Positions 13,980-14,290 of a stretch of DNA of 22,433 bases are shown here, piece after piece (the first letter of the stretch is position 1; every line of letters begins with the position of its first letter). The translations under genes were made by a program, and so were the position numbers. This stretch comes from a virus (lineage: Duplodnaviria > Heunggongvirae > Uroviricota > Caudoviricetes), in the IMG/VR virus record IMGVR_UViG_2627853732_000005. One strand, 5' to 3'. A model generated the notes under the pieces. That model made no database searches. It saw nothing but the letters and a program-made list of their open reading frames with translations, and was not told where the DNA came from.

Positions 13980-14054
13980 TGGAGCGGGCAGCGGGAATCG
14001 AACCCGCATCATCAGCTTGGAAGGCTGAGGTAATAGCCATTATACGATGCCCGC
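13980..14054 (-). tRNA. tRNA-Gly (anticodon UCC)
   Basis: Reverse complement GCGGGCATCGTATAATGGCTATTACCTCAGCCTTCCAAGCTGATGATGCGGGTTCGATTCCCGCTGCCCGCTCCA. Anticodon stem TCAGC/GCTGA, loop CTTCCAA; T-arm GGTTCGATTCC; encoded CCA; 7-bp acceptor stem. Confidence 0.85.
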
Positions 14055-14057
14055 ATA

Positions 14058-14133
14058 TGGTGCCGACTACCGGAATCGAACTGGTGACCTACTGATTACA
14101 AGTCAGTTGCTCTGCCTGCTGAGCTAAGTCGGC
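14058..14133 (-). tRNA. tRNA-Thr (anticodon UGU)
   Basis: Reverse complement GCCGACTTAGCTCAGCAGGCAGAGCAACTGACTTGTAATCAGTAGGTCACCAGTTCGATTCCGGTAGTCGGCACCA. Anticodon loop CTTGTAA; encoded CCA. Confidence 0.85.
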
Positions 14134-14135
14134 GC

Positions 14136-14212
14136 TGGCCCACCACCGAGGACTCGAACCTCGCACCGTCAACTTAGAAGGTTGATGCTCTATCCGGATG
14201 AGCTAGTGGTGG
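14136..14212 (-). tRNA. tRNA-Arg (anticodon UCU)
   Basis: Reverse complement CCACCACTAGCTCATCCGGATAGAGCATCAACCTTCTAAGTTGACGGTGCGAGGTTCGAGTCCTCGGTGGTGGGCCA. Acceptor CCACCAC/GTGGTGG, anticodon stem TCAAC/GTTGA, loop CTTCTAA; encoded CCA. Confidence 0.8.
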
Positions 14213-14213
14213 T

Positions 14214-14290
14214 TGGTGGCCCTTGCTGGACTTGAACCAGCGACCTGGCGATTATGAGTCGCTCGCTCTGACCAACTGAGCTAAAGGGCC
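14214..14290 (-). tRNA. tRNA with CAU anticodon, most likely Ile2 (lysidine type) rather than elongator Met
   Basis: Reverse complement GGCCCTTTAGCTCAGTTGGTCAGAGCGAGCGACTCATAATCGCCAGGTCGCTGGTTCAAGTCCAGCAAGGGCCACCA. Anticodon loop CTCATAA. Overall close to E. coli ileX as I remember it; Ile versus Met cannot be settled by eye. Confidence 0.75.

Follow-up and report, generated by a model that had tools for sequence, protein, structure and literature searches.

A composite four-gene tRNA array in the late region of a defective lambda-like prophage and its probable role in rare-codon supply

Introduction

Why would a prophage whose lysis and head genes are gone still carry four intact tRNA genes, where did these genes come from, and what would they be for? 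The questions are raised by a stretch of DNA of 22,433 nucleotides (nt) from a virus of the Caudoviricetes (IMG/VR record IMGVR_UViG_2627853732_000005), referred to at its full length as the window, in which tRNA genes are packed between positions 13980 and 14290, downstream of a gene for a Q-like late antiterminator. An initial annotation, made from the letters of the sequence, took them for a phage-type array that serves codons rare in Escherichia coli. Here we report that the array is a composite, in which a phage-type pair (an Ile2 gene and an Arg gene with an argN-type body) is joined to near-exact copies of the host genes thrU and glyT. It is probably an intact operon of four tRNAs that supplements the scarcest host tRNAs for codons over-used by phage genes. 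The prophage, lambda-like (Rac-type) and by now defective, carries the array in its late and lysis module.

Results

The tRNA genes and their identity

Exactly four tRNA genes were found by ARAGORN in the 22.4-kb window, all of them on the minus strand. The Rfam tRNA model, RF00005, matched the same four sites with 56–70 bits, where the gathering score is 29 (E 6e-10 to 8e-14); at that margin chance can be excluded. In array order the genes are tRNA-Ile2 with anticodon CAU (14214–14290, 70.5 bits), tRNA-Arg with UCU (14136–14212, 56.4 bits), tRNA-Thr with UGU (14058–14133) and tRNA-Gly with UCC (13980–14054, 64.9 bits), and they are separated by A, GC and TAT, that is by 1, 2 and 3 nt. Each encodes a 3' CCA, as E. 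coli-type tRNA genes do, and each folds with an above-threshold score into a cloverleaf with a 7-nt anticodon loop, ARAGORN placing the anticodons at 34–35. The initial annotation had described the same head-to-tail, CCA-bearing genes with this spacing and had proposed a tRNA finder as the check; ARAGORN returned all four where they had been placed, in agreement with Rfam and with the sequence itself.

To which host or phage genes do they correspond? The genes were aligned to their K-12 counterparts and to the tRNA genes of a Shiga toxin (Stx) phage, Stx2a_F349 (AP012530). The names ileZ, argN and argO for the Stx-phage genes follow the GenBank annotation of AP012530. The Gly gene is an exact copy of glyT (75/75), and the Thr gene matches thrU at 74 of 76 positions, the sole differences (T16>C and T20>C) lying in the D-loop; the Thr anticodon arm, ACTGA-CTTGTAA-TCAGT, is that of host thrU without change. 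The near-identity of these two genes to glyT and thrU, which the initial annotation had suggested, is confirmed by alignment. The two copies are fused by the 3-nt spacer TAT, and neither the promoter nor the leader of host thrU was found to be retained when the upstream regions were compared.

The gene with the CAU anticodon could have been read as tRNA-Met or as tRNA-Ile2. It is identical to host ileY at 71 of 77 positions, with a shared acceptor stem, and to Stx-phage ileZ at 74 of 77. Its acceptor stem, GGCCCTT/AAGGGCC, supplies C4-G69 and C5-G68, the positive determinants of TilS, and positions 27 and 43 form an A.C combination, so that the pair on which the tRNA-Met acetyltransferase TmcA chiefly depends, C27-G43, is absent (PMC2500205). 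The pair 30/40 is G-C, as in tRNA-Ile2, and identical copies of the gene are annotated as tRNA-Ile by the NCBI Prokaryotic Genome Annotation Pipeline (PGAP). On the strength of the ileY/ileZ identity, the TilS determinants, the missing C27-G43 pair and the PGAP label we assign the gene to tRNA-Ile2, the reader of AUA, as the initial annotation had preferred. Its anticodon is expected, from these determinants, to become lysidine-AU.

By its sequence the Arg gene is an argN-family body with a UCU anticodon and not a copy of argU. It agrees with host argU at 58 of 77 positions, with Stx argN at 64 of 77 and with Stx argO at 46 of 77, and its D- and T-arms are those of argN, as is its unusual first pair, C1-G72. 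The identity elements recognized by ArgRS are A20, C35, U36 and a purine at 73. The cloverleaf of the window gene is paired throughout and a reading of its sequence finds A20, C35, U36 and G73, with A20 supplied by the D-loop ATCCGGATA, C35 and U36 lying in the anticodon loop CTTCTAA, and G as the discriminator. Such a tRNA would read AGA and, weakly, AGG.

Codon usage

Are the codons read by the array those that phage genes need? We compared 38 K-12 genes with the non-pseudogene genes of a related prophage in FDAARGOS_944. In the K-12 genes the four codons form small shares of their codon families (ATA 5%, AGA 2%, ACA 11%, GGA 9%), and in the prophage they are enriched relative to K-12, AGA by 7.1 times (p 5e-15), ATA by 2.7, ACA by 2.1 and GGA by 1.8. 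Among the codons compared, AGA ranks first in enrichment, ATA fourth, ACA seventh and GGA tenth. The statement that the array reads AUA, AGA, ACA and GGA, codons rare in E. coli, holds on these numbers, at 2–11% of the families and 1.8–7.1 times enriched in the related prophage.

The Q-like gene, the terminator and the promoter-like site

Directly upstream of the array, on the same strand, lies a gene for a Q-like late antiterminator of 184 amino acids (aa) (14480–15034; Pfam DUF1133, E 2e-107). The protein has a marginal match to Phage_antitermQ as well (29.4 bits with a cut-off of 26), and relatives annotate a DUF1133 family protein at the same position. Between this gene and the putative promoter of the array, RNA folding identified an intrinsic-terminator hairpin followed by a U-run, similar to tR' (14378–14408, minus strand). 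The hairpin has 13 bp and −18.2 kcal/mol (z = −5.1; none of 200 shuffled sequences folds as well), and it is conserved in those relatives that share the upstream region of the window. A simple terminator scanner gave no terminator here, the hairpin being evident only on folding. The initial annotation had placed the array directly after Q and a terminator, as in the late region of Stx-type phages, and this placement stands, with the DUF1133 gene and the folded hairpin upstream and a class II holin next in the relatives. It had also stated that no toxin gene is in the window, and stx genes are indeed absent.

The interval between the stop codon of Q and the terminator (14377–14464, minus strand) gave sub-threshold Rfam matches to isrK (19.9 bits with 50 required) and to the Trp leader (23.1 with 41 required). 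By analogy with lambda 6S RNA or with StxS, it may encode a short, terminated transcript of the late promoter.

A sigma-70 promoter-like site, TTGCAG-N17-TATTAT with a GC-rich discriminator, TCTGCCTCC, was identified by consensus scan (9/12) at 14300–14329 on the minus strand, ending 9 nt ahead of the first tRNA. The upstream regions of 101 related arrays were reduced to 33 distinct sequences. The hexamers and the GC-rich stretch hold a fixed register in 30 distinct upstream sequences; the 17-nt spacer between the hexamers occurs in at least six unrelated versions, one of them in an Stx phage. The region upstream of host ileY has a similar arrangement. Fixed hexamers around a changing spacer are the pattern expected of a functional promoter that has a discriminator of the stringent type, and the site is on this basis a candidate promoter of the array.

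The structured trailer RNA

Downstream of tRNA-Gly the array continues into a conserved, structured trailer (13802–13979, minus strand), recognized by inverted repeats, folds and covariation, which would be either a 3' external spacer or a leader of the lysis operon. The 11-bp inverted repeat that the initial annotation had noticed just 3' of the array (13928–13938 and 13963–13973) is exact and belongs to this trailer, where its arms, with an inner GGG/CCC stem, form hairpin A. Hairpin B is made of a perfect 14-bp repeat (13848–13861 and 13907–13920) with an inner stem-loop. Folds of the trailer gave z-scores of −4.5, −3.4 and −4.1.

About 175 nt following tRNA-Gly are conserved in 40 distinct versions, on which RNAalifold recovered two long hairpins that use both inverted repeats together with their inner stems. 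Over these 40 homologues 98.5% of cells are paired, as opposed to 39–49% when the partners are slid by 1–3 columns, and compensatory double changes occur at 7 pairs, as opposed to 0–3 when slid; the covariation mostly splits two clades and so amounts to few independent events, and the structure was built from the same sequences. Several A-U to G-U changes fit the tRNA-sense strand only. Of 5426 complete E. coli genomes 517 have the trailer, always near the array and without annotation. No credible Rfam family was found for it at a permissive E-value. A C/D-box or kink-turn in hairpin A was considered and rejected, the CUGA in question being inside a regular helix and the Rfam sR38 match having E = 3.8. 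The trailer could serve RNA processing or stability, act as the leader of the lysis operon, or yield a stable RNA derived from the spacer.

The prophage around the array

Past tRNA-Gly the window resembles intact relatives for about another 180 nt, up to about 13798–13801, where the end of an insertion sequence (IS) starts. This element, an IS600-like copy of the IS3 family (12713–13801) delimited by the break in similarity, with open reading frames (ORFs) that match the transposase domains HTH_Tnp_1 and rve, stands in place of the holin, lysis and head genes, the segment from lysis to tape measure. The window contains at least five IS600-like copies or fragments (repeat families D1–D4 and I1–I5), located at 1446–2622, 3296–4560, 12234–12715, 12713–13801 and 20679–21946, and two copies of IS1 (16256–17020 and 19772–20540). 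IS elements are typically this dense in the genomes of Shigella or enteroinvasive E. coli. The phage genes left in the window are a tape-measure fragment, M, L, K, I, J, lom and tail-fibre fragments; the lysis and head genes have been lost, as have most of those for the tail.

What was lost can be seen in five annotated relatives with three Q types, where a class II holin, a lysozyme and Rz come next after the array. The array occupies the tRNA slot of the lambdoid late region, from Q and its terminator to the lysis cassette, with the lysis genes of the window replaced by the IS. The identical array allele is found behind three unrelated Q-type genes (DUF1133, a 229-aa Q and a 126-aa Q) and ahead of the class II holin WP_000839570.1; in CFSAN029787 (L200), for example, a 100% identical array follows the 126-aa Q protein and precedes the same holin protein as in the other relatives. 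Since the same array has different Q genes and the same holin, it travels with the lysis module, and since Q varies and the holin is constant, a boundary of mosaic recombination lies immediately ahead of the tRNA promoter.

A hok/sok type I toxin-antitoxin locus was also observed in the window (17116–17440, minus strand), with sok RNA at 118 bits in Rfam (gathering score 59) and an ORF for a Hok/Gef peptide at 17116–17328. It lies in the early-right region of the prophage, like hokD in relatives.

Distribution and variation of the array

When 5426 complete E. coli genomes were screened, 603 proved to have a four-slot array at a query coverage of at least 80%, and 10 of the 603 have the allele of the window (at least 99% identity). 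The fused Thr-Gly junction occurs in at least 120 IMG/VR viral contigs and, among the GTDB representatives, in E. coli, Shigella flexneri (3 copies), Citrobacter braakii and Enterobacter hormaechei. Identical copies of the array are already annotated as tRNAs in RefSeq. Among the relatives fetched, 54 arrays have the composition Ile2-Lys(UUU)-Thr-Gly, 35 have Ile2-Arg(UCU)-Thr-Gly as in the window, 23 consist of Thr-Gly alone, and about a dozen have odd anticodons in the second slot.

The second slot is the most varied. In 149 sampled genes it shows at least 16 anticodon-loop versions on one C1-G72, argN-like body family: the Lys-type loop CCTTTAA (75 genes, with C and not U at 33), the Arg loops CTTCTAA (41) and CTTCGAA (2), a Thr-type CCTGTAA (1), and versions of 73–74 nt with loops of 5–6 nt (TAAAT, TTAAT, TTTAT, CCAGGT, CCAGAT, CATAGT, CTTGGT, CACGGT and CTCAGT). 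Three bodies each carry several loops and are otherwise identical, the sets being CCTTTAA/CCTGTAA/TCTTTAA, TAAAT/TTAAT/TTTAT and CCAGGT/CCAGAT. Counterparts of window 14136–14212 with variant loops are found at 2615–2691 of relative L007 and 2595–2671 of L008, and in L020, L045, L056, L105 and others. Many of the 73–74-nt variants may not be working tRNAs, because their loops have 5–6 nt and no purine at 37. The variety of loops could reflect natural switching of tRNA identity, decoys or decay. Anticodon shifts are rare among the chromosomal tRNAs of 61 Enterobacteriaceae (PMC3923123). In the laboratory, 'tRNA gene recruitment' has been described in which an Arg-UCU tRNA was turned into Thr-UGU (Saks et al. 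1998, as cited in PMC3923123), and the change from Arg-UCU to Thr-UGU in the second slot may be a natural analogue of that experiment.

The Thr anticodon arm is of the host type in 126 of 131 sampled arrays. In four arrays TCAGT has become TCATC, by which two stem pairs and one CNG motif are broken and the stem is shortened; in L133 a GATGA/TCATC stem is compensated in full, without a CNG. Altered Thr(UGU) alleles, with TCATC as the 3' strand of the anticodon stem, are carried by L006 (2788–2863), L034, L118 and L133. They resemble, at the level of sequence, the two-factor signature of resistance to P2-OLD (PMC12445682). The Gly gene varies as well. In FDAARGOS_943, a close relative (L006, 2867–2937), and in L118 the fourth slot is annotated as 'tRNA-Val' and is a decayed copy of glyT, in which the anticodon has gone from UCC to UAC and A38 to G, one nt of the acceptor is deleted and no CCA is left; the label probably follows the anticodon of what is a pseudogene.

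Arrays of Thr-Gly alone (L037, L073, L027, L048, L111, L133 and L041) have another conserved leader, TTGAAT-N16-TATTAT, which continues for about 65 nt with a GGTTCC...GGAACC hairpin ahead of Thr. As this leader differs from that of the four-gene arrays, the Thr-Gly pair is a mobile unit found behind at least two kinds of leader. An exact match to the junction pattern was also observed in Photobacterium sagamiensis (L017, 714–749), within a Ser-Thr(UGU)-Gly(UCC)-Asn array whose Thr-Gly spacer is 8 nt long; by this match, Thr(UGU) and Gly(UCC) genes with these ends are adjacent in at least one Vibrionaceae genome.

Discussion

Arrays of this kind are already documented, in the GenBank records of Stx phages, in SfI-type phages and as the identical copies annotated in RefSeq. 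The closest parallel is the ileZ-argN-argO cluster of Stx phages (933W type), which occupies the same slot downstream of Q and upstream of the late genes. In both, an Ile2 gene comes first, is followed after 1 nt by an argN-type body with C1-G72, and is preceded by a TTGCA...TATTAT promoter-like box. However, the Stx cluster has Ile2-CAU, Arg-UCG and Arg-UCU between Q and stx, and the array of the window is not of that composition: its second slot has the anticodon UCU where argN has UCG, argO is missing, copies of thrU and glyT are added, there is no stx and Q is of another type. One or two tRNA genes (Asn-GUU, Thr-UGU) downstream of Q have been described in SfI, Sf6, ST64T, PS3 and phage 21 and explained by codon supply, ACA being over-used relative to S. 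flexneri (PMC3636060); judged by this published description, they share with the window the slot and the Thr(UGU) gene but are not sets of four. In the literature searched, no relevant paper on ileZ, argN or argO was found, a study of Stx pR' regions (PMC6266700) does not mention tRNAs, and no paper was found that describes the four-gene composite, its promoter or its trailer. PMC10111431, considered as a parallel, is not relevant, dealing with satellites that integrate into tRNA-Ile2 genes.

How, then, would the array work? In the explanation that we hold to be probable, it would be transcribed from its own sigma-70 promoter, with a start a few nt before the first tRNA, and on induction Q-modified late transcription would also read through the terminator into it. 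RNase P would cut at the 5' end of each tRNA, and exonucleases would trim the tails of 1–3 nt back to CCA. For processing at such tight spacing there is a precedent in host valV-valW, which have a 4-nt spacer and are separated by RNase P (PMC2190699, PMC7049720). With C34 of the first tRNA turned into lysidine by TilS, the net result would be a greater supply of four minor decoders, for AUA, AGA, ACA/ACG and GGA/GGG, codons that would be over-used by the prophage and by other horizontally acquired genes. Any present benefit would go to the host or to other foreign genes and not to lytic growth of the prophage itself, because its lysis and head genes are gone.

Several points weigh against this explanation. 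The codon-usage comparison with host genes that the initial annotation had proposed came out divided: all four codons are enriched in the FDAARGOS_944 prophage, but AGA, at only 2.4 per 1000, is not enriched in the phage genes left in the window. The enrichment is moreover a correlation, which any AT-richer foreign DNA would show. Rare-codon supply cannot cover the whole family of arrays, because the commonest relative carries Lys-UUU in its second slot, and AAA, at 32 per 1000, is no rare codon. A search of the interval from Q to the terminator for the late promoter pR' was unsuccessful, the scan returning none and the best site found by hand scoring 7/12. Promoter use, read-through, processing and modification are all inferred. 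Finally, the prophage is defective, and the array may therefore be a neutral passenger.

This last point can be put as an explanation in its own right: the array would be a leftover in a decaying prophage and contribute nothing measurable now. The deletion of lysis, head and most tail genes, the at least five IS600-like and two IS1 copies, and the decayed Gly copy and disrupted Thr anticodon stem in FDAARGOS_943 all speak for such decay. In the window, however, all four genes are intact cloverleaves, 100% identical to copies in intact-looking prophages elsewhere, and the promoter-like site, the terminator and the trailer are likewise intact. Whether or not the phage is alive, the supply of tRNA would be raised by an exact copy of glyT with a promoter in front. 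We regard a neutral relic as unlikely.

Could the array instead be insurance against tRNA nucleases? It would then be one allele of a modular prophage cassette that is widespread and whose chief task is not codon supply. Its second slot would offer a swappable anticodon, the C1-G72 body having been seen with Arg-UCU, Arg-UCG, Lys-UUU and Thr-UGU as well as with the aberrant loops of 5–6 nt. Its Thr-Gly pair would be a reserve for two host tRNAs that have the cleavage motif of P2-OLD. Its trailer would have a function as RNA, for example in processing or stability or as a regulator derived from the 3' spacer. This broader proposal, which takes in the whole family of arrays, is likewise improbable in our estimation.

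A narrower form of the idea is that the array is a counter-defence cassette which replaces host tRNAs cut by immune nucleases (P2-OLD, or PARIS and PrrC-type nucleases acting on tRNA-Lys) and does not serve codon supply. P2-OLD cuts tRNA-ThrU(UGU) in the interference between P2 and lambda, by which lambda-infected cells are killed, and phage Thr(UGU) tRNAs rescue the cell (PMC12445682). The lambdoid array includes Thr(UGU), and both thrU and glyT have the paired CNG motifs (nt 28–30 and 40–42) and the A37 of OLD substrates. The commonest relative has Lys-UUU on a non-host body in its second slot, and a phage tRNA-Lys neutralises PARIS (PMC11464382). In five relatives the Thr alleles have the CNG broken or compensated together with a shorter stem. 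Against this, the Thr and Gly anticodon arms of the window are identical to those of the host, whereas over-expressed host thrU protects little or not at all and resistance requires both an altered CNG and a shorter stem (PMC12445682). The window Thr thus shares its UGU anticodon with the nuclease-resistant phage tRNAs (T5 tRNA-Lys for PARIS, Thr(UGU) for P2-OLD; PMC11464382, PMC12445682, PMC10264068) but has neither of these changes, and all but the five altered arrays of the 131 sampled retain the host-type Thr arm. In this analysis no known nuclease could be linked to Ile2 or specifically to Arg-UCU. Because the Thr arm is host-identical, counter-defence is not supported for the allele of the window, and we consider it an unlikely account of the array; it may apply to relatives with the altered Thr stems or with Lys-UUU on the non-host body.

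The exact Gly and near-exact Thr copies and their order would also be expected if the host thrU-tyrU-glyT-thrT operon, or other tRNA loci of the host, had been duplicated or mis-assembled. This explanation is rejected as almost certainly wrong: tyrU and thrT are absent, as are the host spacers (8, 116 and 6 nt) and any similarity to the host flanks; the Arg gene is only 58/77 to argU; and hundreds of prophages and viral contigs have the array with identical spacing, by 1, 2 and 3 nt. With this, the array is not the exact contiguous copy of a host operon that the initial annotation had named as refuting its reading. The annotation had further held that order and spacing do not match the host operon; this holds for the spacing, with the nuance that Thr followed by Gly is colinear with thrU...glyT. 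Compared with K-12 thrU-tyrU-glyT-thrT-tufB as a whole, the window also lacks the host promoter and tufB, and its 3-nt fusion lies inside a prophage.

Conclusions

In summary, the window carries an intact four-tRNA array, which we take to be probably an operon for rare-codon supply, and by itself it matters little: it confirms an annotated class of prophage tRNAs and refines the identity of each gene. It shows, however, that a phage tRNA operon can arise by the joining of a phage-type pair to flank-free, near-exact copies of two host genes, and that such an operon, with various Q genes ahead of it, moves together with the lysis module. If the observations on the second slot are true, they would be a natural bacterial example of tRNA identity switching by anticodon change. 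The Thr and Lys observations, if true, would provide candidate escape alleles for the tRNA nucleases P2-OLD and PARIS, and the trailer would be a new conserved RNA structure beside phage lysis genes.

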